Positions 9,954 to 59,615 of a stretch of DNA of 64,000 bases are shown here, piece by piece. Location: assembly GCA_965204085.1 (NCBI GenBank), contig CBDBEE010000003.1:387240-451239 (forward strand). The letters are read 5' to 3'. The notes beneath the pieces are model-generated. The model was not told where the DNA came from, did not search any database, and saw only the letters and a list, made by a program, of their open reading frames with translations. Numbering within the stretch: the stretch's first letter is position 1; each line of letters begins with the position of its first letter. Source of the DNA: Candidatus Poribacteria bacterium (lineage in GTDB: Bacteria; Poribacteria; WGA-4E; JAJDTR01). Made by a program: the position numbers and the translations under genes.

Positions 9954-9955
9954 AT

Positions 9956-17762: not shown

Positions 17763-19602
17763 CTCCACTAACTAGCGTACCGCCATCCGAGCTAAAAACG
17801 AGGCTGTTGACCGACCTACCGTGCCCCCTCAGTGTTCGCCGATGTGCCCCCGTCCCAGCCTCCCACAGATGAATGTTGCCGTCACTGCACCCGCTAATCA
17901 CTGTGCTGCCATCTGGGGTGAAAACGACACTCATGGCACGCGCTCCCGGCGCTTCAAGGGTCTGGCGACTCGCGCCTGTCTTAGTGTCCCAGATCCGCAC
18001 GGTTCTGTCACCGCCAACGCTTGCCAGCATGTCGCCAGTAGGGCTAAAGGCGACGCTGACAATGTCCGACGCATGCCCTTCCAGTGTGTGCAGAGGAGCG
18101 TCAGTTGCCACATCCCAAAGGCGAATCGTATAGTCGCCGCTGCCACTCGCAAACATTCGTCCATCGGCGCTAAACGCGAGACTTGAGCGAATCGGTCGGT
18201 ATGTAATATGCTCGACTTCTGGGGTTTCCCAGTTAAAGGTGCGCAGTTTCGCACCTGTATTGGCATCCCACAGGGTGGCGGAACTGTCGCCATCCCCACT
18301 CGCAATGGTAGAACCGTCGGAACTAAATGCAAAGATAACATCATCTTCGACATCTTCCACCAAGGTACGTACTTCAGTGCCTGTCATAACATTCCAGAGA
18401 CTAATGGTATGATATTCGTCCCCGCCCACTAGTGTTTGACCTTCTGGGCTAAAGGTGAAATGTGATAGCCGCGACCAATCACTTTCCAACGACAGTTTGT
18501 AAGCACCTGTGGCGGTGTCCCACATGCGGATAGGAACTCGCGGACTCGCACTTGCCAGCATGTTGCCGTCCGGGCTAAGGGCGACGCTATGGATGGATTC
18601 CAAATGTCCACTCATGATTCCCAAGCGTGCGCCCGTAGCCGTTTTCCACAGACGGATGGTGGTAGCCGCACTTGCCAGCCTTGAGCCATCAGGATTGAAG
18701 GTTAGAGCAGCAACCCAATCCTGATGTCCTAGTAGCGTTCGCAGCAGTTCCCCCGTCGCCGCATCCCACAGTCGGGCGGAATTGTCGCTGTACCCGCACG
18801 CCAACGTGCTTCCATCCGGGCTGAATCCCATGCACGGGACTCCACTCTCCCAGTCCTCCAATTGACGCAAATGATTGCCCGTTGCAACATCCCACAAATG
18901 AACACTGTCACGCCAGCTAGCACTAGCCAGCATCGATCCGTCTGGGCTGAAAGCAACACTTGAAAGGTGCTCCGTATGTCCTTCCAATGTTCGCAGGTGT
19001 GTGCCTGTAGACGTATCCCACAGTGCAATGTTGTAGTTAGGGTAACTCCATGCCGCCAGCACCGAGCTATCCATGTTGAACGCGATGCCTCCGACGCTGA
19101 ACGCCTGATCTCCCTGGAGCCGTAATTCGAGAGATCGTTTCTGTTCCCCGGTTACGGCATCCCAAAAACGGACGCTAATGTCATGATCGACACTTGCGAG
19201 TGTGGCGCCATCTCGACTAAAGCTGACGCTTCTGATACTAGCGGTGTGCCCCTTCAGCGTGCCCAAATGCGCACCCGTTGAAGCATCCCACAGTCGAACA
19301 GTTTTGTTTGAACTCCCACTCGCTAGTACGCTCCCATCCGGGTTGTACGCTAAGCACCTGATGTCATCCGCATGCGCGGCGAACAAGGCGACATCCTGAC
19401 TGGTCATGGTGTCGTAAATCCAGATCCCGATACCCGTGCCTACCGCAAGCCGAGTGCCATCCGGGGAATACTCTATTTGGTTGATCTTGCCTTTTCCGAG
19501 ACGCATTGTGACCCCGTCAGGCAAGCCCCACTGGGGGAATTCTTGGGAAGCGTTAAGCGGCGAGAGCACGATGAGTAATAGTAAGGTCAAGAGTATTCTC
19601 AT
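17722..19602 (-). CDS. secreted WD40-repeat protein, paralog of 15280..17148
   Basis: An ATG at 19602 starts MRILLTLLLLIVLSPLNASQEFPQWGLPDG. The N-terminus and blade structure match the paralog. The last ~12 codons and ~200 bp downstream are nearly identical between the two copies. Confidence 0.85.
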   Translation of the reverse strand: MRILLTLLLLIVLSPLNASQEFPQWGLPDGVTMRLGKGKINQIEYSPDGTRLAVGTGIGIWIYDTMTSQDVALFAAHADDIRCLAYNPDGSVLASGSSNKTVRLWDASTGAHLGTLKGHTASIRSVSFSRDGATLASVDHDISVRFWDAVTGEQKRSLELRLQGDQAFSVGGIAFNMDSSVLAAWSYPNYNIALWDTSTGTHLRTLEGHTEHLSSVAFSPDGSMLASASWRDSVHLWDVATGNHLRQLEDWESGVPCMGFSPDGSTLACGYSDNSARLWDAATGELLRTLLGHQDWVAALTFNPDGSRLASAATTIRLWKTATGARLGIMSGHLESIHSVALSPDGNMLASASPRVPIRMWDTATGAYKLSLESDWSRLSHFTFSPEGQTLVGGDEYHTISLWNVMTGTEVRTLVEDVEDDVIFAFSSDGSTIASGDGDSSATLWDANTGAKLRTFNWETPEVEHITYRPIRSSLAFSADGRMFASGSGDYTIRLWDVATDAPLHTLEGHASDIVSVAFSPTGDMLASVGGDRTVRIWDTKTGASRQTLEAPGARAMSVVFTPDGSTVISGCSDGNIHLWEAGTGAHRRTLRGHGRSVNSLVFSSDGGTLVSGGDDGTVLFWDISH

Positions 19603-29195: not shown

Positions 29196-30430
29196 GCCCC
29201 TATCATCAAGAACCCAAGTTCATGAAAACTTCGCGCAGCTTATCGAAGGTCGGGCGCGCGTTTCTTAAGCCTACCCCAAATTGTGGCTGTCTTGGAAGTA
29301 GGGGACACCGCTAGTGCTACCGGGTTAAAGTCGGGCTGGTAATCGATCCCATCATGATCATCGCTAAGTTGCTTAAGATATTTTCCATCTGCGGTCATCA
29401 AGTGAATCTTTGCGCCGAAGAGAAATTCATCAGAGCTCGCATATGCGATCGCCTCTCCATCGGGAGACCATGCGGGCCCCCGATGATTCTCTTGATTGTG
29501 TGTAAGCTTCTTGAGATTTTTTCCATCCACCCCCACCACATAGATGTGAAAGAATCCCGCCTCCTCGCCCCAGTATGCAATCCGTCCTCCGTCGGGAGAA
29601 AACGATGGGTGCCATTTAGGCACTAAATCGTGCGTTACCCGTTCAAGCCCCTGTCCGTCAGCGTCCATCACGTAAATTTCGTTGCCCCCATCTTTCCAAG
29701 ATACGAATGCAATCTGTCCCCCATCCGGAGACCATGATGGCTGCCTCGTTCGGTCTTCATACCTTACACGATTTCCTCCATCTGCGTCCATTACCTCGAT
29801 ATGATTTATCCCATCTTGGACGGTGAACGCAATCTTACCCCCATCTGGAGACCAGTCTGGATCCGCCTTTCTTTCCGGCCCATCTGTCAGTTTAATCAGG
29901 TTCGTACCATCGGCGTCCATGACGTAGATTTGATATTCGCCGGTTCGACGGGAAACGAATGCAATCTTCGTCCCGTCGGGAGACCAATCCGGATCCTCGT
30001 CATCCACTGGATTGTTTGACAAGTTTTCCCGGTTTCCGCCATCGGAATCCATTACATAGATTTCAAAGTTGTCAAATCCCTGGTGTGAAAAAACAATCCG
30101 TGGCCCCTGCGCGGCGAGTCCTCCTATAAACCACAACTCCGCACTTAACAGCATCACGGTTAACCCAATAAACGACACAAGTGTGCGCCTGAATCGCATT
30201 TTTTCCTCCTTGGCCGTGCCTAATATGAACAGTAAGGTAACCGGTTTTGAATGCGTGCTCAGGTACCGTTTGTACGCGCTCCTAATCCTTGCGCAATGTT
30301 CTCGGCACTGGCGATATTTTCAATGGCCCGTCCCAGTCTTCTAGCCCCATTGACATCATCACGGCTTCCCGGTGCGTTTGAGATCTCCCCAAGATATCGG
30401 CAACTTTCCGTTTGGGTTGACTGCCAATGC
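29196..30430. repeat. segmental duplication, copy 1 (about 1.23 kb; PD40 type-A gene, its upstream region, and the 3' end of the next type-B gene)
   Basis: It is about 98% identical to 32676..33910. The identity breaks down on both sides, as seen by direct comparison of the two stretches. Confidence 0.85.
29240..30199 (-). CDS. secreted TolB-like PD40 beta-propeller protein (type A, 319 aa)
   Basis: ATG at 30199 with an AGGAGG Shine-Dalgarno sequence and a signal peptide. Repeated PD40 blades follow the D-W-SPDG-x-IAF pattern. The C-terminal tail is …AVSPTSKTATIWGRLKKRAPDLR. Confidence 0.8.
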   Translation of the reverse strand: MRFRRTLVSFIGLTVMLLSAELWFIGGLAAQGPRIVFSHQGFDNFEIYVMDSDGGNRENLSNNPVDDEDPDWSPDGTKIAFVSRRTGEYQIYVMDADGTNLIKLTDGPERKADPDWSPDGGKIAFTVQDGINHIEVMDADGGNRVRYEDRTRQPSWSPDGGQIAFVSWKDGGNEIYVMDADGQGLERVTHDLVPKWHPSFSPDGGRIAYWGEEAGFFHIYVVGVDGKNLKKLTHNQENHRGPAWSPDGEAIAYASSDEFLFGAKIHLMTADGKYLKQLSDDHDGIDYQPDFNPVALAVSPTSKTATIWGRLKKRAPDLR

Positions 30431-31348
30431 ACCTTGCGGCCAAGAGGGATCTTTGTTATCAATACCGGGAGGAGTCTTCGTGAGTTTGACGGCGTTCCTC
30501 CCGTTGGTGTCCATCAAATAAATATTAGAATCTCCGCCGCGGTGCGACACATAGGCGATTTTCTTCCCATCCAGAACATAGACTGGTGACGTGCTGCGAC
30601 CGTCTTCCGTAAGCTGCTCTAACTCTTTCCCGTCAGTGGTAATCGCGAAAATGTCATCACGCGTGCGATCAGGGAAGCGGCGCCGCGAGTGGAAAACAAT
30701 CTTCTTGCCATCTGGCGACCAAGTAGGAAAGAAACTGTCCGTGAGGTCGCTGTCGCCGGTGAGATTACGCCTTCCCGTTCCATCTGCATTCATCACGAAG
30801 ATGTGAGCGGGATCAAAGTCGTCGAAAGGGGCGCCGACAAACGCAATCTTACTTCCATCTGGTGACCAACTCGGTACAACATCGTCCATCTTGTGTTCTG
30901 TCAAATTTATCTCATTTTCTCCATTGGCGTCCATCACGTAGATTTCCGAGTTGCGGACGTGAAAACGGGAAGATGAAAAGGCAATCCTCGTGCCATCCGG
31001 CGACCAAGTAGCGCGGCTGTCAAAAAAATTGTCATGGGTGAGTCTTACCACGTTATTGCCATCACTGTCCATCACATACAAGTCCTGTGTAACGCCGCGC
31101 TCTGATGTGAACGCAATCCTTCTCCCATCCGGCGAGCAAGCGGGATATTCATCGGATGCAGGGTGGTCGGTGAGTTGGAGGAGATTGTCTCCATTTACGT
31201 CCATGGAGTAAATGTCCCAGTCGCCGTCACGATTCGATGCAAAGACGATTCTCGGTTCGAACGTCTGCGCGGTGCTGTTAGAAGTAACTATTAACGCCAA
31301 TAGCAGTAGAAACAGGCATTTTCTCAAAAATGGGCTGATTTTAATCAC
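30359..31348 (-). CDS. secreted TolB-like PD40 beta-propeller protein (type B, 329 aa)
   Basis: GTG start at 31348 with a GGAGAA Shine-Dalgarno sequence and a signal peptide (CLFLLLLALIVTSNSTAQ). PD40 blades are present. The C-terminal tail is …AVNPNGKLPISWGDLKRTGKP. Confidence 0.75.
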   Translation of the reverse strand: MIKISPFLRKCLFLLLLALIVTSNSTAQTFEPRIVFASNRDGDWDIYSMDVNGDNLLQLTDHPASDEYPACSPDGRRIAFTSERGVTQDLYVMDSDGNNVVRLTHDNFFDSRATWSPDGTRIAFSSSRFHVRNSEIYVMDANGENEINLTEHKMDDVVPSWSPDGSKIAFVGAPFDDFDPAHIFVMNADGTGRRNLTGDSDLTDSFFPTWSPDGKKIVFHSRRRFPDRTRDDIFAITTDGKELEQLTEDGRSTSPVYVLDGKKIAYVSHRGGDSNIYLMDTNGRNAVKLTKTPPGIDNKDPSWPQGALAVNPNGKLPISWGDLKRTGKP

Positions 31349-31443
31349 CGGTCATATTCTCCTTTTTCGGGTTCTACGCTTTTAGACTATTCTCTAAATC
31401 CCGGCAATGCTGTGTTTGGGTGTCGCCACCGAGTTCATTGACA

Positions 31444-32457
31444 TTACCGCGGGTTGCCGGTGCGTTTGATATCTCCCCAAGATGTCGGCAACTTTCCGTT
31501 TGGGCTGACTGCAAACGCACCAGCAGCAAACAACCAGGAAGGAAGTATGTTATCAACACTGGGAGGAGTTCTCGTGAGTTTGACCGCGTTCCTTCCGTTG
31601 GTGCCCATCAAATAAATATTGTAATCTCCGTCTCTTGTTGACGCAAAGGCGATTTTTGTCCCATCCGGCGAATAGGCTGGAAACCTGTTGCTACCCTCCT
31701 CCGTAAGCCTTTCTAAGTTTTCCCCTTCAGCGGTAATCGCGTAAATGTGATAATGCAGGTCTGGATCAAAGAGGTGCTGCGAGTGGAAAGCGATCATGCG
31801 TCCATCTGGCGACCAAGCAGGGGACCGATTTTTCGTTAGGTCAGTATCGCCGGTGAGATTGCGCCTTTCCTTTCCATCCGCATTCATCACGAAAATATGC
31901 TCTGGACTAAACCAGTCGCCGTCACGGGCGGATACAAACGCAATCTTGCTTCCATCTGGCGACCAACTCGGCGAATTATCTTGCCATTTGTGTTTTGTCA
32001 AATTTATCGGGTTATTTCCATTCACGTCCATCGCGTAGATTTCCTGGTTGCCAACGACCGCACGGAAAGATGAAAAGGCAATCCTCTTGCCATCCGGCGT
32101 CCAACTAGGGTCGATTTCAACAAAATTGTCATGGGTGAGTCTTACCACGTTATTGCCATCGCTGTCCATCACATAAAGGTCATGTGTAACGCCGCGTTCT
32201 GATGTGAACACAATCCTTCTCCCATCCGGCGAGCAAGCGGGAGAGTAATCGTATGCCGGGTGGTCGGTGAGTTGGAGGAGATTGTTTCCGTTTTGGTCCA
32301 TGGAGTAGATGTCCCAGTTGCCAATCCAGTTGCCATCGTGGTTTGATTGAAAGACGATTCTCGGTTCGAAGCTCTGTGCTGTACTGTCCGAAGTAACCAT
32401 TAACGCCAATAGCAGTAGAAACAGGCATTTTCTCAAAAATGGGCTGATTTTATTCAT
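31444..32457 (-). CDS. secreted TolB-like PD40 beta-propeller protein (type B, 337 aa)
   Basis: ATG at 32457 with a signal peptide and PD40 blades. The tail is …AVSPNGKLPTSWGDIKRTGNPR. Confidence 0.8.
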   Translation of the reverse strand: MNKISPFLRKCLFLLLLALMVTSDSTAQSFEPRIVFQSNHDGNWIGNWDIYSMDQNGNNLLQLTDHPAYDYSPACSPDGRRIVFTSERGVTHDLYVMDSDGNNVVRLTHDNFVEIDPSWTPDGKRIAFSSFRAVVGNQEIYAMDVNGNNPINLTKHKWQDNSPSWSPDGSKIAFVSARDGDWFSPEHIFVMNADGKERRNLTGDTDLTKNRSPAWSPDGRMIAFHSQHLFDPDLHYHIYAITAEGENLERLTEEGSNRFPAYSPDGTKIAFASTRDGDYNIYLMGTNGRNAVKLTRTPPSVDNILPSWLFAAGAFAVSPNGKLPTSWGDIKRTGNPR

Positions 32458-32675
32458 CGGTCATGTCCTCCTTATTCCGGTATTTCAATTCTATAGTCAA
32501 TGCAACTGAAAAATTCACATTCGGGGAATTTAGCAGTTCAGTTTGCAGGAGCGATCTCCGAATCGCGAAGGAGCAACTCAATACTCGCTCCGATAGAGGT
32601 TGCGTTATGAATCGTGCTACTACGAGCCGAACCCAGTAAATCCTAAATGTGAAATCCTTGATTGATGCGATAATA

Positions 32676-33910
32676 GTCCCTATCATCAAGATTCACAGTT
32701 CAAAAGACAATCTCACAAGCTATCGAAGGTCGGGCGCGCGTTTCTTAAGCCTACCCCAAATTGCGGCTGTCTTGGAAATGGGTGACACAGCTAGGCCTAC
32801 CGGGCTAAAGTCGGGCTGGTAATCGATTCCATCATGATCATCGCTAAGTTGCTTAAGATATTTTCCGTCTGCGGTCATCAAGTGAATCTTTGCGCCGAAG
32901 AGAACTGCATCAGAACTCGCATATGCGATCGCCCCTCCATCGGGAGACCATGCGGGCCCCCGATGATTCTTTTCATTGGGCGTAAGCCTCTTGAGGTTTT
33001 TTCCATCCACACCCACCACATAGATGTGAAAGAATCCCGCCTCCTCGCCCCAGTATGCAATCCGTCCTCCGTCGGGAGAAAACGATGGGTGCCATTTAGG
33101 CACTAAATCGTGCGTTACCCGTTCAAGCCCCTGTCCGTCAGCGTCCATCACGTAAATTTCGTTGCCCCCATCTTTCCAAGATACGAATGCAATCTGTCCC
33201 CCATCCGGAGACCATGATGGCTGCCTCGTTCGGTCTTCATACCTTACACGATTTCCTCCATCTGCGTCCATTACCTCGATATGATTTATCCCATCTTGGA
33301 CGGTGAACGCAATCTTACCCCCATCTGGAGACCAGTCTGGATCCGCCTTTCTTTCCGGCCCATCTGTCAGTTTAATCAGGTTCGTACCATCGGCGTCCAT
33401 GACGTAGATTTGATATTCGCCGGTTCGACGGGAAACGAATGCAATCTTCGTCCCGTCGGGAGACCAATCCGGATCCTCGTCATCCACTGGATTGTTTGAC
33501 AAGTTTTCCCGGTTTCCGCCATCGGAATCCATTACATAGATTTCAAAGTTGTCAAATCCCTGGTGTGAAAAAACAATCCGTGGCCCCTGCGCGGCGAGTC
33601 CTCCTATAAACCACAACTCCGCACTTAACAGCATCACGGTTAACCCAATAAACGACACAAGTGTGCGCCTGAATCGCATTTTTTCCTCCTTGGCCGTGCC
33701 TAATATGAACAGTAAGGTAACCGGTTTTGAATGCGTGCTCAGGTACCGTTTGTACGCGCTCCTAATCCTTGCGCAATGTTCTCGGCACTGGCGATATTTT
33801 CAATGGCCCGTCCCAGTCTTCTAGCCCCATTGACATCATCACGGCTTCCCGGTGCGTTTGATATCTCCCCAAGATGTCGGCAACTTTCCGTTTGGGTTGA
33901 CTGCAAATGC
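32676..33910. repeat. segmental duplication, copy 2
   Basis: See copy 1. Confidence 0.85.
32720..33679 (-). CDS. secreted TolB-like PD40 beta-propeller protein (type A), a near-identical duplicate of 29240..30199
   Basis: It is about 98% identical to the copy at 29240..30199 at the nucleotide level, including flanks. The tail is …AVSPISKTAAIWGRLKKRAPDLR. Confidence 0.8.
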   Translation of the reverse strand: MRFRRTLVSFIGLTVMLLSAELWFIGGLAAQGPRIVFSHQGFDNFEIYVMDSDGGNRENLSNNPVDDEDPDWSPDGTKIAFVSRRTGEYQIYVMDADGTNLIKLTDGPERKADPDWSPDGGKIAFTVQDGINHIEVMDADGGNRVRYEDRTRQPSWSPDGGQIAFVSWKDGGNEIYVMDADGQGLERVTHDLVPKWHPSFSPDGGRIAYWGEEAGFFHIYVVGVDGKNLKRLTPNEKNHRGPAWSPDGGAIAYASSDAVLFGAKIHLMTADGKYLKQLSDDHDGIDYQPDFSPVGLAVSPISKTAAIWGRLKKRAPDLR

Positions 33911-34846
33911 ACCAAGAGTCAGCCAAGAAGGATATATGTTATGTACACCGCGCGGAGTGTTCGTGAGTTTGACAGCGTTCATCCCGTCGGTATCCATCAG
34001 ATAAATATTTGAATCACCGTTACGGTGTGACACATAGGCGATTTTTGCCCCATCCGGCGAATAGGCTGGCATCCTGTTGCTGCCCTCCTCCGTAAGCTTC
34101 TCTAACTCTTCTCCTTCAGCGGTAATCGCGTAAATTTGATAACGCGGGCCTGGAGCGAAGATGTGCTGCGACTGGAACGCAATCTTGCTTCCATCTGGCG
34201 ACCAAGTAGGGGACAGATTATTCGTTAGGTCGGTATCGCCAGTGAGATTGCGCCTTTCCTTTCCATCCGCATTCATCACGAAAATATGCTGGGGAGTATC
34301 CAAGCGGCCATCACGGGTGGATGCAAACGCAATCTTGCTTCCGTCCGGCGACCAACTCGGCGTTAAATCGTGCCACTTATGTTTTGTCAAATTTATCTCA
34401 TTTGCTCCATTGGCGTCCATCACGTAGATTTCCGAGTTGCGGACGTCAAAACGCACAGATTCAAAGGCAATCCTCGTGCCATCCGGCGACCAACTAGGTC
34501 TACCTTCAATAAAATTGTCACGGGTGAGTCTTACCACGTTGTTGCCATCGCTGTCCATCACATACAGGTCATGTGTGACGCCGCGCTCTGATGTGAACGC
34601 AATCCTTCTACCGTCCGGCGAGCAAGCGAGTAACCAATCAGATCCCGGATGGTCGGTGAGATGGGCCACATTGTCTCCGTTTACGTCCATGGAGTAGATG
34701 TCCCAGTTGCCAAGCCAGTTGCCATCGTGGTTTGATGCAAAGACGATTCTCGGTTCGAAGATCTGCGCTGTGCTGTCTGAAGCAACCATTAACGCTAGTA
34801 ACAATAGAAACAGGCATCTTCTAAAAAATGGGCTGATTTTATTCAT
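33839..34846 (-). CDS. secreted TolB-like PD40 beta-propeller protein (type B, 335 aa)
   Basis: ATG at 34846 with a signal peptide and PD40 blades. The tail is …AVNPNGKLPTSWGDIKRTGKP. The last ~30 codons fall within the duplicated block. Confidence 0.8.
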   Translation of the reverse strand: MNKISPFFRRCLFLLLLALMVASDSTAQIFEPRIVFASNHDGNWLGNWDIYSMDVNGDNVAHLTDHPGSDWLLACSPDGRRIAFTSERGVTHDLYVMDSDGNNVVRLTRDNFIEGRPSWSPDGTRIAFESVRFDVRNSEIYVMDANGANEINLTKHKWHDLTPSWSPDGSKIAFASTRDGRLDTPQHIFVMNADGKERRNLTGDTDLTNNLSPTWSPDGSKIAFQSQHIFAPGPRYQIYAITAEGEELEKLTEEGSNRMPAYSPDGAKIAYVSHRNGDSNIYLMDTDGMNAVKLTNTPRGVHNIYPSWLTLGAFAVNPNGKLPTSWGDIKRTGKP

Positions 34847-35091: not shown

Positions 35092-36075
35092 TTATCGGAG
35101 GTTGGACGCGCGTTTCTTCACCCTGCCCCAAATTGTAGTTGTTTTGGAGATGGGGGACACAGCTAATCCGAACGAGCGAATGTCGGGCTGAGAATCATTC
35201 GCACCATCGACATTGCTAAGTTGCTTAAGATATTGTCCATCGGCCGTCATCAAGTGAATCGATGAAGGACCATCATTGTCCCAGACATAATATGCGATCC
35301 TCCGTCCGGAGACAGACCATGCAGGGCCTCCATGATTCTGTTGATTCTGTGTAAGTCTCACCCGATTTTTCCCATCTGCCCCTACCACAAATATTTGAGG
35401 GTATAATCTGTCGATGGCCACGTATGCAATCCGTTTTCCGTCAGGAGAAAACGCCGGACTGTGTCCACCCCATAATTCCCGTAATTCATGCGTTACCCTT
35501 CTAAGCCCCTGTCCGTCAGCGCCTATCACGTAGATATCAGACCACCACTCCCCAGCTCTAAAGGATGAGAATGAAATCTCACGTCCATCAGGAGACCATG
35601 ACGGATCCCTCGCGTGGTTTTTAAACCTCACCCGATTATTTCCATCGGCATCCATCACGGCGATGTGAGATTCCCTTATTGCAGCCGGTTGGACCGTGAA
35701 GGCAATTTTACCCGCATCGGGAGACCAGTCTGGTGCCCACTTGCTCCGCGGTCCATCTGTCAATCTAATCGGGTTCTTTCCATCGGCGTCCATGACGTAG
35801 ATCTGATTTCCGCCGTTTCTGTCGGAAACGAATGCAATCTTCGTCCTGTCAGGAGACCAATCCGGATCGCTGTCATACGCTGGATGGTTTGTCAAGTTTT
35901 CTCGGTTTCCTCCATCAGCGTCCATTACATAGATATCAGTGTTGTCAGGTTTCGCGTAGAATGTAAAAACAATTCGATTTGTGCTGAAGGCGAACCCGCT
36001 TCTCAACCACAACTCCCCACTCAACAGCAACACCGTTAGCCCGATAAACGACACAAGCGTGCGTCCGAATCGCAT
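35092..36075 (-). CDS. secreted TolB-like PD40 beta-propeller protein (type A, about 327 aa)
   Basis: An ATG at 36075 (MRFGRTLVSFIGLTVLLLSG…) has an AGGAGG Shine-Dalgarno sequence 6 nt upstream. The track start at 36093 lacks one. The tail is …AVSPISKTTTIWGRVKKRASNLR. Confidence 0.8.
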   Translation of the reverse strand: MRFGRTLVSFIGLTVLLLSGELWLRSGFAFSTNRIVFTFYAKPDNTDIYVMDADGGNRENLTNHPAYDSDPDWSPDRTKIAFVSDRNGGNQIYVMDADGKNPIRLTDGPRSKWAPDWSPDAGKIAFTVQPAAIRESHIAVMDADGNNRVRFKNHARDPSWSPDGREISFSSFRAGEWWSDIYVIGADGQGLRRVTHELRELWGGHSPAFSPDGKRIAYVAIDRLYPQIFVVGADGKNRVRLTQNQQNHGGPAWSVSGRRIAYYVWDNDGPSSIHLMTADGQYLKQLSNVDGANDSQPDIRSFGLAVSPISKTTTIWGRVKKRASNLR

Positions 36076-36320
36076 TTTCTCCTCCTTAGTCATGGGTGTA
36101 ATGCGCAGCCCGTAGGTTGGGTTGAGCGGAGACCCTGAAAATATCCAAGAAGTCAGATTGCTTTAGAGCCTGTTTGAGAAGTACATTTGTAGGGGACGCA
36201 GATCTGCGTCCCCATACGGATCAAGTTAAGGGAGTTCGTCTAGTATTGGTGAGTTCTTCGCCGCAAAACCCTTAACTTAGTCCCCATTGGGCGAGGAGTA
36301 AATCTCAATCTCACCCCATA

Positions 36321-36478
36321 CGGTAGGTGCGGTTTCCAACCGCACCGGTCCCCACGGAAACCAGCGTCATGAGTCATCTTCTGTGGTGCACCCATCAACG
36401 AATGGGTTGGTATTCCATCGTCCATGTCTACATGGAGATTAACAGTTTAAGACATTAGAAACCGCGTGACTTGCGACT
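36321..36478. repeat. ~160-bp dispersed repeat (a REP plus ~130 bp), present in inverted orientation at 59455..59615 (about 95% identity)
   Basis: Reverse-complement comparison. It contains the short track ORFs 36240..36425 (minus strand) and their counterpart. Confidence 0.75.
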
Positions 36479-36791
36479 CAAAACGCTTAACTTGATTCCT
36501 ATGGGGTGGGCACTGCCCACCAGCCTCTAAAAGCCCCAGCGTGGGATCAAATGAGCGGATAGCGAACGATCAAATGACTGATTAAGGAAGGCGCGATAGA
36601 GATCCCATAGAGATCCACTAATCACTAGCCAGCAACGGAGCGGATAGCGACGGCGGTAGAAATCCACTAAGCACTTATCTTTAGGGTTTCCGTTTCGCTT
36701 GAAATCTCCAAATCCGAGCGAAACCCAACCCGCATTTTCCCGCTTTCTTCTTTCAACTAGCCACTGAACACTAGTCACTGGCCACTGCCTT

Positions 36792-39700
36792 TCAATCCGC
36801 CGGCTGCGGCGCCAGTTCAGGGCTTGCGGTTTCCTCCGACTCGTCGTCCTCTTGACGTCCGCGCTCATGGAATTCGCCTCGAACATCCGGGCTAAGCGTC
36901 CGCCAGATCAGCAACTGCTTCCGAATCAAGTTCAAGAACCGACGATTCACACGCTTCCACGACGCTATTTCGCCGCTCTCGCGGGTAATATCAAGTTTAA
37001 TCTGGTACAGTTCCTCCTCCTCGCCGCCAACCGGCGACGTCACGAACCGAATGGCTTGGCTCACGCCCAAATCGTACGGCGCCAACCAAACCATCATACT
37101 GACGGCGTACGACTCCTGTTCCCTATCTCCTGATTCCTCCATAAACCTGGCGAAGGCAACTTGGTTCGTATAAAAATCACTCGCCGACTCGTCCGCGTGC
37201 GCATCAAAGTAATCGCGCATAAATATGTTCAGACCGAGAGCTTCCTCGGACAGCACCGTGAACGGTAGGTTGAAGTGCCATTCATCGCCTGTAGGTTCCG
37301 GCAACTTCCACTTTCGTTCCAAATCGGGAACCGCCATCCGGCTCGCTTTAATCGCCGGGTACAGTGTGCTGCCCACCACTACTATCATCACGATAATCGT
37401 CGCTACGACCGTGGACATGGACGAGTAATTTAGGGTCAGACCGGAAAGCCAACCGAAATTCACCAGCAGCGTCGCCACGACTTGACCCAACAGGTAACCG
37501 AGCACCGCGCCGACAATCGCATAAACACACGCCTCCGCGAGGAACAGAAACGCGATATGCACCGGCGCCAATCCGACAGAGCTGTAGATGCTAATCTCTC
37601 GAATCCTCTCGTAGACCGCGCCAAGCATGGTGTTTAACACAATCAGCGATGCGATGAGAATCGGAATGAACAGGTTCCCCATGCCGGAGAACGAGGTCAT
37701 CCCGATTGAGCTGTACAGATACGTGTTCTTGTCCCGAGCCACGAAAAAATCGAGCGCAATTCGGCTCATCAGCGGCGCCATGATGAGATCCAGTTTGTCG
37801 ACCGCACCCGGTACCGGCGGATCTTCGGGTTGAGGCTCCATATTGACAGCCACCGAGCGCAGCGTGCCGCCTTGGTTGATAATCACCTGATACGGCAGTA
37901 TGGCAACGCTGTCCGGCGTCAGGTGGATATATTTCTGCAATTCGCTGGTGCTGCTCTGGTTCCCTTGCGCTCCCCGCGAGCTTTGCTGTTTCATCAATTG
38001 GTGATCGATGGGCGTCAGCTCCTCGCCATCGTTGTCGGTCAAATCCTTGAAACCGATTCCGAGCACCCCGGTCACGGTAAAGTCCGCGCCGTAAACCGAA
38101 ACAGTGGCTTTGCCCATATCGGCTTCGACAATTCCCAGCAGATCTGCAACTCCTTTCGGCAGCACACATGCATAGGGCCATCGCGTGGGCCATTCCTCCT
38201 CATCCGCGGGATCGAACCACTTACCGTAATACAGATAGCGGTTTATGCCGGTGATTCGCGGCTCGGCGGCGCTCATCCCGACCAGCATGTTGGCGGAGAA
38301 GGTGTAGGGTTGACCGGTCAAGGCGTCCTCGGGGGGCACGGGATCCTTGACGTTGGAGGTGCGTCTCAATTCGATAAACGACTGATCTCCCGTGCCTGAT
38401 GATTGGTACCACGCTCGGGGACCTACCGCGTTGTGAACCGTCAACATCGAAGAGGGCTGGTAAACCTTCAATTCATCCCCGTCTTTCCTCACCGTGTATG
38501 TGCTCCTGTTGCCGGTGATTTCCCATCTTTCTTCGTCCGTGACCGGCTGAATAGATGTCTGAGGCGCAAGAAGGAATCCGCGTCTGTCAAATTCATGGTT
38601 TAAACTTGCGGAAATTTCGCCCTTCGCAAACTCATCCTGAAGTTCTGAATCCATGCTGAACAGGAATGTCGGTTCGGCGCTGACGCTGGCGAGCGTCCCC
38701 GCCTCGCTTAGCTGAGCAATGGTATCCTCAATCTCCTCCGAGGGCGTGCCTCGCCTTTTCAACATCATCCGAAAATCAGGTTCGGGAAGCTGTGTCTTCC
38801 TCAGATCATTCATAATCGAGCTGATGACCGGCGCTTCAAGCGGACGCCAATACTGATCTCGAATCAACATCCCGGTGTAGCGCGGTGTCACGGCGGGCAG
38901 GTTGGTCTTGTTGGGGTGCATGAAGGTGCGCACGGAGGTGAACGAGATAACGGTGAAGGTCAATATCACCAGCGTGGCGCATGTCAGAATGGTGCGGCCC
39001 TTCCGTTTTCGCATATTCGACACGCCGAGACTGAAAGCCGCGGCGGAAGCCGCCAGGCGGCCCACGTCCGCTTTATACACCTTCGAACTTTCCTGTCTGA
39101 TTTTCTCGAGTTGCTCCTCGAATTTTCGCAAGATGATGGCGATTACGAACACCGTTAGCACCAGCACCACGAAGGCGATAAGAATGATGACGGGCGTGGT
39201 CGTAATTTGGAACGCGGGATGCACCTGCGCCAAAAAGAAGAACACCAGGATGAAAATCCCAGCCGCGCCGCCAATCCGTTTGTGCACGTCGGGAGAGGCA
39301 AAGATCAGACGTTCCATAAAGTAGGAGAACGGCAGGAGTAAGGCGAGGTAGAACATGACCCCGTTGACGACATCGTTACCCGTTTTCTTGACATCGGGAT
39401 AGGCGCGCGATTCGTATCCCCACGCCGCTCGCGCCAGTTTCATTGCCGTGGAGTATTCTTTCTTGGCGAGCGCCGTTTCCGCTTGATCCAGGTGCTCGTG
39501 CGCATAGAAATGGAGTTGATCGAGCCGATCGCTGCTGATGCCGAACCGTTTGTATAAGCTCGTGCGGTTTTCGTCGAGCCACCACATATCTCGGACGACA
39601 ACGTAGGGCGTGACGCGGATGGAACCGTTCTCGCGGACGACAAACCCCGATCCGGTGTATAGTGCCGGATTCTTCGCGCCGCTCTTGCCCGCTTTGATAA

Positions 39701-42700
39701 GCAGCAACCGCTTGCCGATCTGCCCGTATGCCATGCCAATCTTTATACGTGTATCCGGTTCGGAATAGACAAGCGCGATCGGCTCGGTGGCGGACACGCC
39801 CTGCTGCTGCCACGGTTTGGACATCCCGTATTTTTCCGGCGGGCTATCGCTTAAACCGTCAAACACTTGCAACTCGCGCAGCGTGCGCAGGTACCGCTGA
39901 TCGACGAGGTCGTAAATGGTAGTGGACACACACGGGAAAACGATGACGCGGCAGCCTCGTCGCCGGTTTTGGATCCGAAGTTTATTGGATGTGAGTTTGG
40001 CGCCGAAGTTGCCCAAATCCGGGGCATACACGATGTCGCCGGAGTCGGAGTCAAGGAGGTAGGCATCAACCTCTTGCAACCCGCCAATGCGGTGAGTTGC
40101 TCGTCCCTCCATCGCCAGACCCGGCACATCAAACTGAGCTTTGTTGTTGCCCATGGCGATGAGGTCGCCGCGAACACCCATCATGGTCTTGTGCTTGCGT
40201 CGTATAGCGACGATAGGATAGGGCACCGGCGTGTTAGGTAGCGCGCTCTCCCGGGCGTCGTATTCGACGACATCGCCGAACAAATTGCAGTAGAAGTTAC
40301 TCACCTTGGCGCCGGTGGGCATTTTCGGATCGAGCATGGCTTGGATGAGGATGCCGGTCAGCGATTTTACCTGCCTGTGAAGATTGCCGTCATACGTGAG
40401 ATCCATTCTGTCAATCGTGTCCAACGGTGTGTCAGTCAGCAGCCGCCCGTCTTCGATCGTGGCGAACGTAACGCCGGTCTTACCTATCAACGTGGCAACC
40501 TCGCTGTCAAAAGCAATCTTTCCCGGGATGTAGGTTCGCCACGTTTTGGCGCCGGTGGCACCGATAGCGTTGACGAAGTTCGTTTCGCCTCCCAGCCCGA
40601 CGATGTCGATTAACGTTTGGATATCTTCAATCTCGTCCGGGCTTAGTTGAGAAGGATCCTCATGACGCAGGGCAAGCATCATCGGCAGCCGATTGAGGAG
40701 TCGAATCGTGTTCTTGCGGGTTCGCTGCGCCTCGCGTAGGTCGTCTTGGATAAACCGTTCCACTTCGTTGCGGATGTATTCCATGTCTTTCAGCATCTCT
40801 TCCGAGGGCTCGCCGCGCGTCTGCATCTGCTCAAACTGCATCTTCATCAGGCGGGAGACATCGGTCAGCGCAACCAACGATTCGTAGTGGTCGGAAATCA
40901 GGGTCTCCAGAGACTTTCCTTCAATTTCTTTCTTCGTCTCTATCTCGAAAGCGGCTTCCCATTGGCTGTTCATGACCGCCTGACGAATTTGGTCATCGGT
41001 AAAACTCCAGAGCTTGCCGATGCGCACGCCGAAGTCGACGTCGTTGGCGTACTGCATGAGCTTGTTGCCAATGGGGGCAAACTCTCGCCGCAGCACAAAC
41101 TCGGGTTGCTGGTCGTAGAACCAGCCCTTGTTGAACACGGCGAATTTGTCGCTCTGCGTGGAGAGGTCAACCGAGATAAATAGGGAGGTGTAGTAGCGGT
41201 TGAAAAGGTCTTGAAGGGAGATGGCTTGCTCAACGGCGGCGATATTACGGTCATATTCCGATTTGCTGAATCGGGCGAGAATTGCAACGCGGGATTGGAT
41301 GTTGCGAATACGCGAGTTTCGGAGAGTAAGCATGTTGTCGCGGAGAAGGATTTTTATGTCGTCCGGAAAGTCGCGGTCAAAGTTGTCCAGTCCGTTCCTC
41401 AAGTTCTGAAGCTCGACAATATCCTCGCGCGCTTTCTGTTTGACAAACCGGAGCAGCCTGCGTTCTTCAAGGTGGGCAGCTATCTGTTCGCGCGCTTCGA
41501 TTGCGGCTTCCGCTTCGTCATTCTCAAGGTAGTGACGCAACACGAGTATCTCTTCTTCAAAGTACGGACGATTCAGCGAAGCGTGCCAATCATCCTCCAG
41601 CAGGGATTCCAGCCGCTTGCGCTCAAGCCGCGCGTTCCGCATGGCAATCTCAAAGATTCCCTGCTTGTCCTTCGTCAACTCCTCAATAAGGACGGCATGG
41701 GATTCCTTTATCACCCCGCCGCCGGCTGTTTCGTGAACATTCGCCACCTTCTGGCGCAGTTGCGTCTGGATCCCCTTCAACCGACTCATTATGGCTCTAC
41801 TCAGAAAAGGTGCGAATATCCCGTCGACATCATCAGGCATGTAGTCGCGTTGGGTGCGCAACCGGCTTATGCTCGTCTTGATGGGTGACTCAAAATCCGC
41901 ATCCGAAGAAATTCTTTGAAGCGCGTTCTCAAGCTGAAGTTTTTCTTGAGCAATATAGTCGTCCAAACTCCTGTTCGCCTGCCTGGCGCGATCCACAACC
42001 TTGCGCGCGTCCTTCATCGCCTTCAGACCGTGGAAATCCAAGTGTCGATCTAGCACGCGCTCTTGGGCGTATTGGAGCGCAAATTTACGAGAATCGGAAA
42101 ACTCCCAATCCGCCAAATAGTCGGACAGTAGTTTCAAATCCGAGGCTACAGATGTTCCAATGAGATTAGACGGAATTGGGAGATGATAGGCGTCATCTTC
42201 ACCTTTTTCCGGAATGAGGTATGAATCACCCGGCTGCCGTCCGTAGCTTCCACCGACGCGCCCGGCATTCAAATCGGCTTCCAACTGTTCCAACACCCAC
42301 GCGTCCAACCGTGCCATGGGTAGCGCAACGTTTTCAATTAGTTCCAATTGCGCTTCTCGGCACGCCGTCAACGCCATGATCTGGAGGTCATGCATGCGGT
42401 CAACGACCATGCGCAAGAATTGGGTTGTCTGCAGCGCATCTTTCTTGAATTTTGCGAGATTGGTCTCAAGCGTGGATTTTTCCTCCAGCGTATAGCCCTG
42501 CTTCTCGCGTTTTTTCACGACGCGGCGGCGTCTTTTCTGCTTCTCTTTGAAATCTCGTTGTTTGTTGCGCAGCGAGTTGATTCGGTTGTACGTTTTCCCG
42601 ACATCGGATACAGTGGATTTCAGTGACAGAATGGCATCGTCAAGCTGGTGGATTTCGTAGAAGAATTCGGGAGGCAGATCGACGAGCACACTACGGTCAA

Positions 42701-44468
42701 TCGAGAGCAGCAGTTTACGACTCAATTCCTTGAACGGACGGAGATCCAGTCCCAGCCCTTTTGCCATCCCTCCCATGGTTGGAATCCCGGGCGCTTCGCC
42801 CGAGTTGATGTTGAAGTCCGCCCTCGCGATTATATCTTGTCCAATTCCGAACATAAAGAATCGCATACCGGCAAGCCCCTGGAAGTGCCCGTCCGTCGCG
42901 ACAAAAAGCATGGAGCGTCCGGGACGGTATTCCTCTTTGCTGAGGATTCGCGCCACCTCCAAAAGCGCCGCGATTCCGCTTGTAGGATCGGCGCCGGGGG
43001 CAAGTGACGGGACGACCGACATGGAGTCGTAGTAGGCGGTAACGACAACCATCTCGTCTTTCAGAATCGGGTCGCTGCCTTCAAGGAATCCGCGGATGTT
43101 TTGGCCAATTCGGCGTTCCCACGTCATGGTAGAATTCAACCGAACCATTAACGGCTCTGATTTGGAATTCCGATCTGCGTTTCCTGCCTCGGATTCGCCT
43201 AGAAGATTAAGTAACAGATCCGCATCCGTCCTTGAAATCCAGAATCGAGGGATGTTCGCAGGCACCGTCAAGAATTTGTTTTCGGCTTCACCGCGAATAG
43301 TGGTTTCGGGTTCAATAAACACCACAGCTTTCGCGCCAAGCATGGCAGCATTTATCCATTGCGTGCTGGAATTGAAATCTACCAGCAGAACGCTTCCGCG
43401 CGGAATGAAGAGACTGGACTCCGATGCGGCAATAAACTCACCGTCCTCATCAATTAGACCGTCGTTGTTGTTGTCAACGCCATCGTAGGCATTGCCGGGC
43501 GTTTCGTCAACATACCCGTCAGCATCGTTATCAATACCGTCACTGTCCCAATAGACGATGTCGGCAAGCAACGGGATTTCGCCGTATTCGTCAATTTCGC
43601 CGTCTTCGTTGTTGTCAATGCCGTCTTCGGTTTTCTGTAGGTGGCTATTGAGCACATCGTCGGTGATACTCCCCACGGTAACACGATGCCTGTGAGCGAT
43701 GTCTTCAAGCGTATCGCCCCTCTGAACGGCGTACCAGAATCCGCCGATATCTTTGCCGTTGAAGTCCTCCAGATTGGCGTCACCCCCGTAAAAGAGTGGG
43801 GCGCGAAGACCACCGGTGGGAACGAATACCGTGCTGCTCGTCGTTAACGCCACCTCGCCGGGTTCGTCGATTTCGCCATCCCTGTCGTTATCCTGTCCAT
43901 CAGCGGCTTGATTTTGCAGATATTGATTATGGGAATCCTCAAGAATGGATCGAGGCTCTACCTGATATGACTTGGCAATGGATTCGACGGTTTCGCCATC
44001 TTGCACGAGGTGCTTGATCCCGGTGGGCAGCAGTGAGGTACGAATGAGGTTGGGCCACACGGGCCATATCTTTATGGTTCTGAGCACCTCATCGTTTGAG
44101 GAAAGCACCTCCAGTCTTCCGTCGCCGTGGTCAACGGGAACGGCGATCCGAAATTCGCGGCTCTCGACGTTCTGTAAGCCGGTCTCGACGAACCGATCGA
44201 AGACGTACTTACTTGCGGCAGTCGCTTCGGGATAGCCTGTGACCCGACTCTCCAGACTGGAGAGCCGCGCGATATCCTTTCGCATTCTACCGACATCAAC
44301 CTCATCCCGAATCTTGACCGCGATTTCAGAGAGACCGACGGTTGTATCCCTTTCCGCAGTCAGAGGCGTGGATGTCATGATCAGTGCGATGAGACAAACC
44401 CATAGAATATGGAGACTCCTATTCTTGATTGCAATTCGACATTTATCTTTGTTTTTGAGATTGTTCAT
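36792..44468 (-). CDS. giant (2558 aa) membrane protein: N-terminal signal anchor, LysM-like repeats with Asp-rich Ca-binding-like repeats, an M28-peptidase-like domain, about 1000 aa of coiled coil, and FtsX/MacB-type permease modules at the C-terminus
   Basis: One uninterrupted ORF starting at ATG 44468. The tandem segments VQDGETVESIAKSY…/VQRGDTLEDIAHRH… are each followed by D-x-D-x-DG-x-ID-E repeats. VVVTAYYDSMSVVPSLAPGADPTSGIAALLEVARIL resembles the M28 signature HxDS…APGAxDxxSG. The C-terminal block (RKRKGRTILTCATLVILTFTVISF, a ~500-aa periplasmic insert, then GAVYERIREISIYSSVGLAPVHIAFLFLAEACVYAIVGAVLGYLLG) is a clear FtsX-like permease domain. No Walker A motif occurs anywhere in the protein. 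Confidence 0.8.
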   Translation of the reverse strand: MNNLKNKDKCRIAIKNRSLHILWVCLIALIMTSTPLTAERDTTVGLSEIAVKIRDEVDVGRMRKDIARLSSLESRVTGYPEATAASKYVFDRFVETGLQNVESREFRIAVPVDHGDGRLEVLSSNDEVLRTIKIWPVWPNLIRTSLLPTGIKHLVQDGETVESIAKSYQVEPRSILEDSHNQYLQNQAADGQDNDRDGEIDEPGEVALTTSSTVFVPTGGLRAPLFYGGDANLEDFNGKDIGGFWYAVQRGDTLEDIAHRHRVTVGSITDDVLNSHLQKTEDGIDNNEDGEIDEYGEIPLLADIVYWDSDGIDNDADGYVDETPGNAYDGVDNNNDGLIDEDGEFIAASESSLFIPRGSVLLVDFNSSTQWINAAMLGAKAVVFIEPETTIRGEAENKFLTVPANIPRFWISRTDADLLLNLLGESEAGNADRNSKSEPLMVRLNSTMTWERRIGQNIRGFLEGSDPILKDEMVVVTAYYDSMSVVPSLAPGADPTSGIAALLEVARILSKEEYRPGRSMLFVATDGHFQGLAGMRFFMFGIGQDIIARADFNINSGEAPGIPTMGGMAKGLGLDLRPFKELSRKLLLSIDRSVLVDLPPEFFYEIHQLDDAILSLKSTVSDVGKTYNRINSLRNKQRDFKEKQKRRRRVVKKREKQGYTLEEKSTLETNLAKFKKDALQTTQFLRMVVDRMHDLQIMALTACREAQLELIENVALPMARLDAWVLEQLEADLNAGRVGGSYGRQPGDSYLIPEKGEDDAYHLPIPSNLIGTSVASDLKLLSDYLADWEFSDSRKFALQYAQERVLDRHLDFHGLKAMKDARKVVDRARQANRSLDDYIAQEKLQLENALQRISSDADFESPIKTSISRLRTQRDYMPDDVDGIFAPFLSRAIMSRLKGIQTQLRQKVANVHETAGGGVIKESHAVLIEELTKDKQGIFEIAMRNARLERKRLESLLEDDWHASLNRPYFEEEILVLRHYLENDEAEAAIEAREQIAAHLEERRLLRFVKQKAREDIVELQNLRNGLDNFDRDFPDDIKILLRDNMLTLRNSRIRNIQSRVAILARFSKSEYDRNIAAVEQAISLQDLFNRYYTSLFISVDLSTQSDKFAVFNKGWFYDQQPEFVLRREFAPIGNKLMQYANDVDFGVRIGKLWSFTDDQIRQAVMNSQWEAAFEIETKKEIEGKSLETLISDHYESLVALTDVSRLMKMQFEQMQTRGEPSEEMLKDMEYIRNEVERFIQDDLREAQRTRKNTIRLLNRLPMMLALRHEDPSQLSPDEIEDIQTLIDIVGLGGETNFVNAIGATGAKTWRTYIPGKIAFDSEVATLIGKTGVTFATIEDGRLLTDTPLDTIDRMDLTYDGNLHRQVKSLTGILIQAMLDPKMPTGAKVSNFYCNLFGDVVEYDARESALPNTPVPYPIVAIRRKHKTMMGVRGDLIAMGNNKAQFDVPGLAMEGRATHRIGGLQEVDAYLLDSDSGDIVYAPDLGNFGAKLTSNKLRIQNRRRGCRVIVFPCVSTTIYDLVDQRYLRTLRELQVFDGLSDSPPEKYGMSKPWQQQGVSATEPIALVYSEPDTRIKIGMAYGQIGKRLLLIKAGKSGAKNPALYTGSGFVVRENGSIRVTPYVVVRDMWWLDENRTSLYKRFGISSDRLDQLHFYAHEHLDQAETALAKKEYSTAMKLARAAWGYESRAYPDVKKTGNDVVNGVMFYLALLLPFSYFMERLIFASPDVHKRIGGAAGIFILVFFFLAQVHPAFQITTTPVIILIAFVVLVLTVFVIAIILRKFEEQLEKIRQESSKVYKADVGRLAASAAAFSLGVSNMRKRKGRTILTCATLVILTFTVISFTSVRTFMHPNKTNLPAVTPRYTGMLIRDQYWRPLEAPVISSIMNDLRKTQLPEPDFRMMLKRRGTPSEEIEDTIAQLSEAGTLASVSAEPTFLFSMDSELQDEFAKGEISASLNHEFDRRGFLLAPQTSIQPVTDEERWEITGNRSTYTVRKDGDELKVYQPSSMLTVHNAVGPRAWYQSSGTGDQSFIELRRTSNVKDPVPPEDALTGQPYTFSANMLVGMSAAEPRITGINRYLYYGKWFDPADEEEWPTRWPYACVLPKGVADLLGIVEADMGKATVSVYGADFTVTGVLGIGFKDLTDNDGEELTPIDHQLMKQQSSRGAQGNQSSTSELQKYIHLTPDSVAILPYQVIINQGGTLRSVAVNMEPQPEDPPVPGAVDKLDLIMAPLMSRIALDFFVARDKNTYLYSSIGMTSFSGMGNLFIPILIASLIVLNTMLGAVYERIREISIYSSVGLAPVHIAFLFLAEACVYAIVGAVLGYLLGQVVATLLVNFGWLSGLTLNYSSMSTVVATIIVMIVVVGSTLYPAIKASRMAVPDLERKWKLPEPTGDEWHFNLPFTVLSEEALGLNIFMRDYFDAHADESASDFYTNQVAFARFMEESGDREQESYAVSMMVWLAPYDLGVSQAIRFVTSPVGGEEEELYQIKLDITRESGEIASWKRVNRRFLNLIRKQLLIWRTLSPDVRGEFHERGRQEDDESEETASPELAPQPAD

Positions 44469-49674: not shown

Positions 49675-49867
49675 GGGAAATATCTCCCAATTACAATCTT
49701 CCGGAAACACCCGGCCCAGCAACCGCTTCGCCTCTACTCTTGTAGGAGCGATCCCCAGGTCGCGACATCAAGGCGAATCGCATCAAAATTCCGTCAATTG
49801 CGTGCGAGTTTTCGTCCCGAATTCCGTTATTGCACGCATTCCAAAAAGCAAATTCTAGGTCACACTA

Positions 49868-59404: not shown

Positions 59405-59454
59405 TTAAAATGATACTATCGCATTTGTAGGGCATAGGGATCAAGTTAAGCGTC

Positions 59455-59615
59455 ATGGATCGCAGTCACGCAGTTTCTAATGTCTTAAACTGTTAATCTC
59501 CATGTAGACATGGGCGATGGAATACCAACCCATTCGTTGATGGGTGCACCACAGAAGATGACTCATGACGCTGGTTTCCGAAGGTACCGGTGCGGTTGGA
59601 AAGGGATCTCTATCA
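59455..59615. repeat. inverted copy of the 36321..36478 repeat
   Basis: See above. Confidence 0.75.

Follow-up and report, generated by a model that had tools for sequence, protein, structure and literature searches.

A mosaic repeat in a tandem PD40 gene array of Candidatus Poribacteria: an older duplication, probably homogenised in part by recent gene conversion

The window analysed here is a stretch of 64,000 nucleotides (nt) from a Candidatus Poribacteria bacterium (assembly GCA_965204085.1, contig CBDBEE010000003.1, positions 387,240 to 451,239). On its minus strand, six intact open reading frames (ORFs) for PD40 propeller proteins of two subtypes lie head to tail in the order A1-B2-B3-A4-B5-A6. 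The A-type genes A1 and A4 are a mosaic, identical over their 5´ two thirds and diverged over their 3´ third. We read the array as a recombination-driven hot spot in which A1 and A4 stem from an older duplication that was later partly homogenised by recent gene conversion, and assign this reading a probability of about 0.6. An initial inspection of the DNA by itself (the sequence-only reading) had described a very recent ~1.2-kb segmental duplication. That description gives way to a mosaic, with a synonymous divergence (dS) of 0 in one part and 0.166 in the other, in which the recent event appears to be the homogenisation of 850 bp.

Identity along the A1/A4 repeat

All genes of the array are on the minus strand. 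A1 (29240..30199, 319 aa) is the terminal A-type propeller, A4 (32720..33679, 319 aa) is a second one, and A6 (35092..36093, 333 aa) is a divergent A-type propeller that is transcribed first. The B-type propellers are B2 (30359..31348, 329 aa, GTG start), B3 (31444..32457, 337 aa) and B5 (33839..34846, 335 aa), the last being the 5´ partner of A4 in a dyad made of a B gene, a 159-nt spacer and an A gene. A start codon, a ribosome-binding site and full length are found in all six copies. PD40 (PF07676) is matched by 6/6 proteins with E-values of 1e-31 to 5e-51 (108-170 bits; cut-off 20.9) and 3-5 repeats detected in each, and the two subtypes separate by protein identity (A1/A4 97%, A1 vs A6 63%, A vs B 37-40%). 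B2 is at most 73% identical in amino acid sequence to any other copy. The number, orientation, order and subtypes of the paralogs given in the sequence-only reading agree with these ORFs, PF07676 matches and identities.

A direct repeat at an offset of 3480 joins 29196..30430 to 32676..33910. It had been located correctly from the sequence and described as about 98% identical, but over the exact block the ungapped identity is 96.8% (1195/1235) and falls by segment from 100% to 92.5% and 66%. Over 29240..30433 it is 97.9% (25 mismatches in 1194 sites). The tracts 29532..30381 and 33012..33861 (both minus strand) show no mismatch in 850 bp; they comprise the last 23 nt of B2 and B5, respectively, the 159-nt spacer, and codons 1-222 of A1 and A4, respectively. 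The diverged part, 29240..29531 on the A1 side (minus strand, codons 223-319 plus the stop) and its partner 32720..33011 on the A4 side (minus strand), has 22 mismatches in 292 bp (92.5% identity). Past the A1 stop, 29196..29239 is only 66% identical to its A4 counterpart, and three mismatches lie between the right end of the perfect tract and 30433, beyond which the register is lost at a B2/B5 indel. Permutation of the mismatches gave a perfect run of at least 850 in 0 of 200,000 trials (p < 5e-6, maximum 545; analytic bound p <= 8e-13), and a GENECONV-style test on polymorphic sites found 170 consecutive matching sites for A1-A4 (permutation p < 5e-5).

By the Nei-Gojobori method, codons 1-222 have dS = 0 and a non-synonymous divergence (dN) of 0, compared with dS 0.166, dN 0.051 and dN/dS 0.31 in codons 223-319. 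The differences in the 3´ third are 10 synonymous and 11 non-synonymous without indels, and both ORFs are intact. The pair thus holds two layers: a single recent copy would be uniformly identical, and selection has no means of removing synonymous differences from just one stretch of a gene. The dN/dS across paralogs, a check proposed with the sequence-only reading, is 0.31-0.66 within subtypes of the window array.

The older layer seems to be specific to this lineage, because A1 and A4 are mutual nearest relatives even in the 3´ third (92.8% identity to each other, at most 86.6% between either one and any other gene examined). It also looks like ordinary divergence after an older duplication, because derived states are shared about equally between the two genes: at the 25 A1/A4 differences they split about evenly when polarised with six outgroups, e.g. 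14 vs 10 against L001 (loci of relatives are given L numbers throughout). A6 was rejected as donor of the diverged 3´ third of A1 or A4, since it is only ~67-73% identical there. As single-copy flanking genes differ from those of the nearest other genomes by a dS of 0.26-0.39, against 0.166 here, the older event would be about half as old as species-level splits, and not "very recent".

The upstream B genes have a different history. B2 and B5 are ~70-90% identical in 60-nt bins over most of their length, and with a dS of 0.37 they are ordinary paralogues, so that the dyads B2-A1 and B5-A4 are not recent co-duplicates. Each copy of the repeat had been said to contain an A gene, its promoter region and the last ~30 codons of the adjacent B gene. 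The A gene and the B end are confirmed, but most of those codons belong to a shared tail and only 23 nt are specific. In 30382..30433, identity is 49/52 for B2-B5, 47/52 for B2-B3 and 50/52 for B3-B5. This segment is tail-coding sequence conserved in all three B genes of the window and not B2/B5-specific, because B2 and B5 are no more alike there than B3 and B5. The pair-specific portion is limited to the last 23 nt of the B gene, where B2 and B5 agree at 23/23 positions vs 19/23 for B3.

The supposed promoter region is the B-to-A spacer at 30200..30358 (minus strand, 159 nt, identical to 33680..33838). A scan for sigma-70-type promoters and terminators found no promoter on the minus strand in any spacer, with overall counts no higher than in shuffled sequence; what the spacer does carry is an AAGGAGG ribosome-binding site. 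Across nine dyads its mean column identity is 85%, with the AAGGAGG before the ATG invariant. An RNA structure is unsupported by RNAalifold on the nine B-to-A spacers (-9.5 kcal/mol, covariation term -0.38), and Rfam at gathering thresholds gave no match anywhere in the window. The B-159 nt-A dyad occurs twice in the window and also in L001 to L005, and looks like the basic unit of this family of PD40 arrays. Spacers of exactly 159 nt lie elsewhere at 9842..10000 and 14972..15130 in L001, 9842..10000 in L002 and 6661..6819 in L003, and L012 has a B-to-A spacer at ~5591..5745. The spacer is conserved about as much as coding sequence or more (~95% between the window and L001/L002).

The sequence of events can be pictured as follows. 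Flanked by two conserved genes, the array would have grown in the space once taken by a single ancestral A-type gene. A1 and A4 would go back to an older lineage-specific duplication or whole-gene conversion, the age of which is recorded in the 3´ third (7.5% divergence). That two A copies existed before the tract was exchanged is implied by the dS of this third and by the mutual nearest relationship of A1 and A4 there. Much later, a non-reciprocal exchange would have transferred no more than 850 bp between the dyads. B5-A4 is the probable donor and B2-A1 the recipient, since L012 has positional orthologues of A4 and of the B5-A4 junction, and A1 has none in the relatives. The copied tract would begin in the tail-coding sequence common to the B genes, cross the 159-nt spacer and stop at A codon 222. 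Gene conversion is preferred as the mechanism because the tract ends in homologous sequence and the intervening 2.3 kb (B3/B2) between the A1 and A4 copies is not duplicated; unequal crossing-over between the two repeats should add or remove a full 3480-bp tandem unit, which was not seen, only 1.2 kb of the period being repeated. Such conversion would homogenise copies and leave their number unchanged, and changes in copy number would stem from separate unequal-recombination events between homologous segments.

Copy number and segment exchange in PD40 arrays

Orthologous loci were retrieved with the downstream flanking gene (26652..28595, minus strand, a DUF6785 + DUF6784 membrane protein) as anchor. 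The search gave 12 loci, all from metagenome-assembled genomes (MAGs) of Candidatus Poribacteria or from relatives, with anchor identities of 78-99%; four are in records titled complete chromosome. At 11 loci, the window among them, PD40 genes were counted between the anchor and the upstream flanking gene (36792..44468, minus strand), which encodes a 2558-aa protein with M28 peptidase, LysM and FtsX-like permease domains. There are none in L007, L008, L013 and L017, one in L006 and L011, four in L009 and L010, five in L012, six in the window and at least eight in L015. The states 0, 1, 4 and 5 are each represented by a record titled complete chromosome (L008, L006, L009 and L012, respectively; probably long-read assemblies), and the variation in copy number is therefore not an artefact of short-read collapse.

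The window array was mapped onto these loci in 150-nt pieces. The single gene of L011 and L006 matches A6 and its 5´ flank (in L011 at 94-99% along most of the gene), and its 3´ flank matches the window from 29250 down to 28600, right after the A1 stop (91-99%). The segment 28596..29239 (minus strand) following A1 is thus the ancestral 3´ flank, orthologous to that of the single gene. A1 resembles A4 up to the stop codon and from there on follows the 3´ flank of the L011 single gene almost base for base. A4 retains ~44-45 nt of ancestral 3´ flank and then continues into the sequence found upstream of B3; this relic of ~44 nt after the A4 stop (32676..32719, minus strand) marks an old junction between array units. 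The array sits within the footprint of one ancestral A-type gene, because A6 keeps the ancestral 5´ flank and A1 the 3´ flank. A one-gene footprint is the outcome expected of expansion by misaligned homologous recombination, and the features that characterise an array expanded in this way are found here: the end copies keep the flanks of a single gene and the copy number is polymorphic. Expansion by unequal recombination, as proposed in the sequence-only reading, accordingly holds for the locus, with copy numbers from 0 to at least 8 and a one-gene footprint, but not for the recent event, which leaves the copy number unchanged.

A neighbour-joining tree of 29 PD40 genes at the anchor site assigns positional orthologues to most of the array. 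Those of A6 are L011_1, L012_1, L010_2 and L009_1 (91% amino acid identity to L011_1 and 89% to L012_1), that of B5 is L012_2 (86%), those of A4 are L012_3 and L009_2, and those of B3 are L009_3 and L009_4. A1 is the sister of A4 within the window lineage only and has no positional orthologue in the relatives, and B2 forms a deep isolated branch. The two sides of the array also differ in their distance to particular relatives. Relative to L006, dS is 0.088 for the large flanking gene (36792..39191, the C-terminal 800 codons) and 0.26 for the anchor (26652..28565), 8 kb away; relative to L011, it is 0.114 for A6 and 0.34 for the anchor. With dS so unequal between the large flanking gene or A6 and the anchor, the two flanks of the hot spot do not seem to share one history, a sign of homologous recombination among strains in this region.

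Similar arrays exist at other loci. The PD40 family has >7,500 database relatives, with several paralogues per genome, and the closest ones to A1 (84-87% identical) are in other, larger arrays on Mb-scale contigs. L001 has at least 16 PD40 genes in 21 kb on a 6.15-Mb circular contig. The arrays of L002 to L005 sit between TauD and MR_MLE genes and differ between assemblies in copy content, truncated copies and one insertion sequence (IS). Self-comparison with chunked queries detected partial-gene tracts of 200-780 bp and 95-99% identity between non-adjacent paralogues in L001 (four), L003, L005 (three) and L015, with ends that fall inside genes. The tract in L003 is built like that in the window: 260 nt from the 3´ end of a B gene, a 159-nt spacer, and 181 nt from the 5´ end of an A gene.

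Over 29532..30199, the 5´ two thirds of A1/A4, identity to L002 10001..10668 is 93.1%, compared with only 84.9% in the 3´ third. This difference suggests that arrays at separate loci, or different strains, have exchanged segments. Decay is seen as well. In L004, a DDE transposase is inserted into a PD40 gene (17908..19526), and L005 (9332..10417) and L010 (5962..6264) have PD40 fragments that are truncated but still end in the C-terminal tail. From this decay it follows that arrays lose as well as gain copies; truncated copies in the relatives are only sporadic (L005, L010).

Alternative explanations and meaning

The explanation given in the sequence-only reading, in which unequal recombination duplicated a single ~1.2-kb segment very recently and the few differences have arisen since, is highly improbable. 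The overall identity of 97-98%, the joint presence of gene, spacer and B tail in the block and the copy-number variation of the locus would fit it. It is contradicted by the clustering of the differences along the block (p < 1e-12), by a dS of 0.166 in the 3´ third vs 0 in the 850 bp, which is beyond selection or chance, and by a B-tail part that is not pair-specific; the full 3480-bp tandem unit to be expected from unequal crossing-over is also missing. A possible alternative, to which we give low odds, invokes a second exchange after or during a recent copying event: the whole ~1.15-kb unit of B tail, spacer and A gene was copied recently, and either one 3´ third was then overwritten by a ~92%-similar paralogue from elsewhere in the genome or the polymerase changed templates while copying. 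The very large family with several paralogues per genome, the swapping of segments across loci seen in the comparison with L002 and the lack of a positional orthologue of A1 in any relative would all agree with such a history. The derived states at the 25 sites, however, split about evenly, as in ordinary divergence of two lineages, the highest identity of either 3´ third to a sequenced relative is 86.6%, and no donor is found in the window.

An assembly or consensus artefact, be it mis-resolution of the repeat, a strain chimera or polishing with cross-mapped reads, is quite unlikely, and two real copies are favoured. The assembly hazard named in the sequence-only reading is a sensible warning: an exact repeat of 850 bp exceeds short reads and assembler k-mers, the organism is uncultured so that the window is probably metagenome-assembled, and the public gene index lacks exact matches to the A1 and A4 proteins (best database relative 87% identical). 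Yet the copies differ in their flanks on either side, with 2.3 kb of unique B3/B2 sequence between them. The 22 clustered differences look like those of coding DNA (10 synonymous, 11 non-synonymous) and include no frameshift, the window contains no N, and similar tracts are found in relatives whose Mb-scale and circular contigs were assembled independently. A collapse would moreover delete a copy rather than add one. The artefact could then take the form of 850 bp homogenised during consensus building.

A few points weigh against gene conversion on an older duplication as well. The exact identity over 850 bp comes from the assembly. The comparison of donors covers the window and the relatives, and a third paralogue in the same genome could have donated a 3´ third. 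The direction of the exchange is deduced from the positional orthologues that A4 has and A1 lacks. Conversion is not pervasive in the array, a GENECONV-style test of B2, B3 and B5 giving weak signals only (best uncorrected p = 0.0015), and the B-to-A spacer has no sigma-70-type promoter.

As a tandem multigene family with concerted evolution, the window array shows textbook dynamics and holds no mechanistic surprise. Concerted evolution by gene conversion between bacterial paralogues is known from tufA/tufB and from rRNA operons, and cassette-based variation systems include pilE/pilS of Neisseria, vlsE of Borrelia and msp2 of Anaplasma. The array shares with tufA/tufB and with the cassette systems a sub-genic, non-reciprocal homogenisation with tract ends in conserved sequence, as well as a clustered, fast-evolving family of surface-directed or secreted proteins (a location that is predicted here). 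It differs from the cassette systems pilE/pilS, vlsE and msp2 in having no expression site with silent cassettes and one strong tract only. Cassette-type antigenic or phase variation was therefore rejected, 6/6 copies being full-length ORFs with a ribosome-binding site in the spacers of both dyads, and there was no evidence of programmed or high-frequency switching in the window array.

One intriguing but doubtful idea is that PD40 arrays constitute a recombination-based diversification system for exported binding proteins. Dozens of B-A dyads would be scattered in hot spots, and segmental conversion would find its homology anchors in the conserved sequences for the signal peptide (5´) and the tail (3´) and in the 159-nt spacer. 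These anchors would act within and between arrays, and the tail, which is shared with Laminin-G proteins, would be a sorting or anchoring signal. If true, the symbiont would gain a shuffled set of propellers, secreted or on its surface, with which to interact with the sponge host or with phages. Fast evolution combined with segment exchange is the behaviour expected of PD40 proteins that face a changing partner, such as a host, a phage or a substrate. The arrays would deserve greater weight only if they prove to be a diversification system or the tail a new sorting signal.

The observations have a bearing on existing genome data, too. Exact repeats of this kind exceed short reads, and short-read Poribacteria MAGs may under-count or scramble the arrays. 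For sponge symbionts, they take PD40 beyond mere abundance, to tandem arrays at hot spots that differ between close genomes, and they define a family for testing together with a candidate C-terminal sorting tail.

The PD40 proteins, their relatives and other features of the window

An AlphaFold2 model has a mean predicted local distance difference test (pLDDT) score of 84.5, with core residues 31-290 above 90, and a predicted template modelling (TM) score (pTM) of 0.79. The core of ~260 residues is, with high confidence in the model, a closed beta-propeller. Superposition on the C-terminal, six-bladed TolB propeller gives a TM-score of 0.76, a root-mean-square deviation (rmsd) of 2.4 Å and 26% identity. 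The best sequence matches in the PDB are 2ymu (E 1e-42) and then TolB (phmmer E ~1e-27). An N-terminal hydrophobic helix is consistent with a signal peptide or an anchor. On the basis of sequence and model, the array proteins are best described as stand-alone six-bladed TolB-type PD40 propellers that are predicted to be secreted.

The proteins resemble the TolB propeller (1c5k, 2hqs, 4r40) in PD40 repeat type and fold (Foldseek: TM 0.74-0.76, rmsd 2.2-3.0 Å, ~270 columns, 25-26% identity) and in an N-terminal export signal, which is predicted here. Unlike TolB, they lack the N-terminal alpha/beta domain, occur as multi-copy tandem genes outside a tol-pal operon and have an additional C-terminal tail. 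An identity as TolB was rejected: the equivalog model TIGR02800 is matched with 192-216 bits vs a cut-off of 343.15 and at profile positions ~245-410 only, the proteins are ~320 aa long vs ~430, and the N-terminal domain and a tolQRA-tolB-pal neighbourhood are missing. Other propeller-only proteins are Atu1656 (2ojh), a stand-alone PD40 propeller (TMt 0.76), and the Nostoc "WD-40 repeat protein" 2ymu, which consists of a highly repetitive PD40 propeller only. In contrast to the proteins described here, no array context, hot-spot behaviour or C-terminal tail motif is known for Atu1656 and 2ymu.

Between orthologues, dN/dS of the PD40 genes is 0.24-0.51 vs 0.02-0.05 for the two flanking genes (anchor 0.02-0.03). 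By this measure, the PD40 proteins evolve ~10 times faster than their neighbours. The most variable positions of the alignment are in the loops before and after the conserved "SPDG-x-x-IAF" strands.

The C-terminal tail comprises ~25 residues and is predicted to be disordered. In the window it is encoded, on the minus strand, by 29240..29320 (A1), 30359..30440 (B2), 31444..31525 (B3), 32720..32800 (A4), 33839..33920 (B5) and 35092..35170 (A6). All of the ~80 PD40 array genes examined end in this tail, whose consensus is ~[LF]AV-x-P-x2-K-x3-[TIS]-W-G-x-[LIV]-K with 3-8 further residues after it. The same tail ends Laminin_G_3 proteins in the window (51098..51970, minus strand), L002 (16877..17857), L003 (16988..17917) and L004 (16877..17857), and an uncharacterised non-PD40 ORF in L014 (1190..2011). 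The whole proteins gave no match to the sorting domains of the type IX secretion system (T9SS/Por; TIGR04183, PF18962), which measure ~70-100 aa, and the tails alone gave none to NCBIfam sorting-signal models at E <= 10. The tail is a candidate sorting or anchoring signal of an undescribed kind.

PD40 is among the classes of eukaryote-like proteins (ELPs) that are enriched in sponge microbiomes (PMC9531527). In Poribacteria, WD40-type proteins are reported to be abundant; many have a signal peptide, together with a putative sorting domain at the C-terminus, and the corresponding secretion machinery was not found (PMC3909097). The window array represents the PD40 class, in Poribacteria, of the ELPs known from sponge symbionts (ANK, LRR, TPR, WD40, NHL, PD40). 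Unlike the present analysis, these papers (PMC9531527, PMC3909097) give domain counts only, with no tandem arrays, copy-number hot spots or conversion. Literature searches on Poribacteria with PD40, gene conversion or tandem arrays likewise yielded domain enrichment only, and no account of the arrays, the hot spot or conversion. A role in host interaction is assumed for ELPs in general, and the array proteins may be exported and function as variable binding proteins of this class.

A possible link to anti-phage defence was considered and rejected. PADLOC returned no match for A1, B2 or the anchor gene and hence no defence link for the PD40 genes; the large flanking protein (36792..44468) is picked up through its LolE/FtsX part only. 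Its C-terminal membrane part matches the PADLOC "CARF_LolE_TM" models (E 1e-47), presumably due to the LolE/FtsX membrane domain alone. A few kb from the PD40 array, 45544..49722 (minus strand) encodes a protein of 1392 aa with a cytochrome-c-like N-terminus, leucine-rich repeats, cohesin and dockerin, and a FlgD-Ig or weak Por_Secre_tail match at the C-terminus. From its domains it would be another eukaryote-like surface protein.

Finally, an element of ~171 bp occurs in inverted orientation at 36333..36503 and 59433..59602 (93.6% identity, no Rfam match). One copy is located in the ~700-bp gap between A6 and the 2558-aa gene (36094..36791), most of which is without a counterpart in the orthologous loci, and the other lies between the ORFs 58325..59404 and 59969..61639. 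It could be a short intergenic element that is mobile or repeated.

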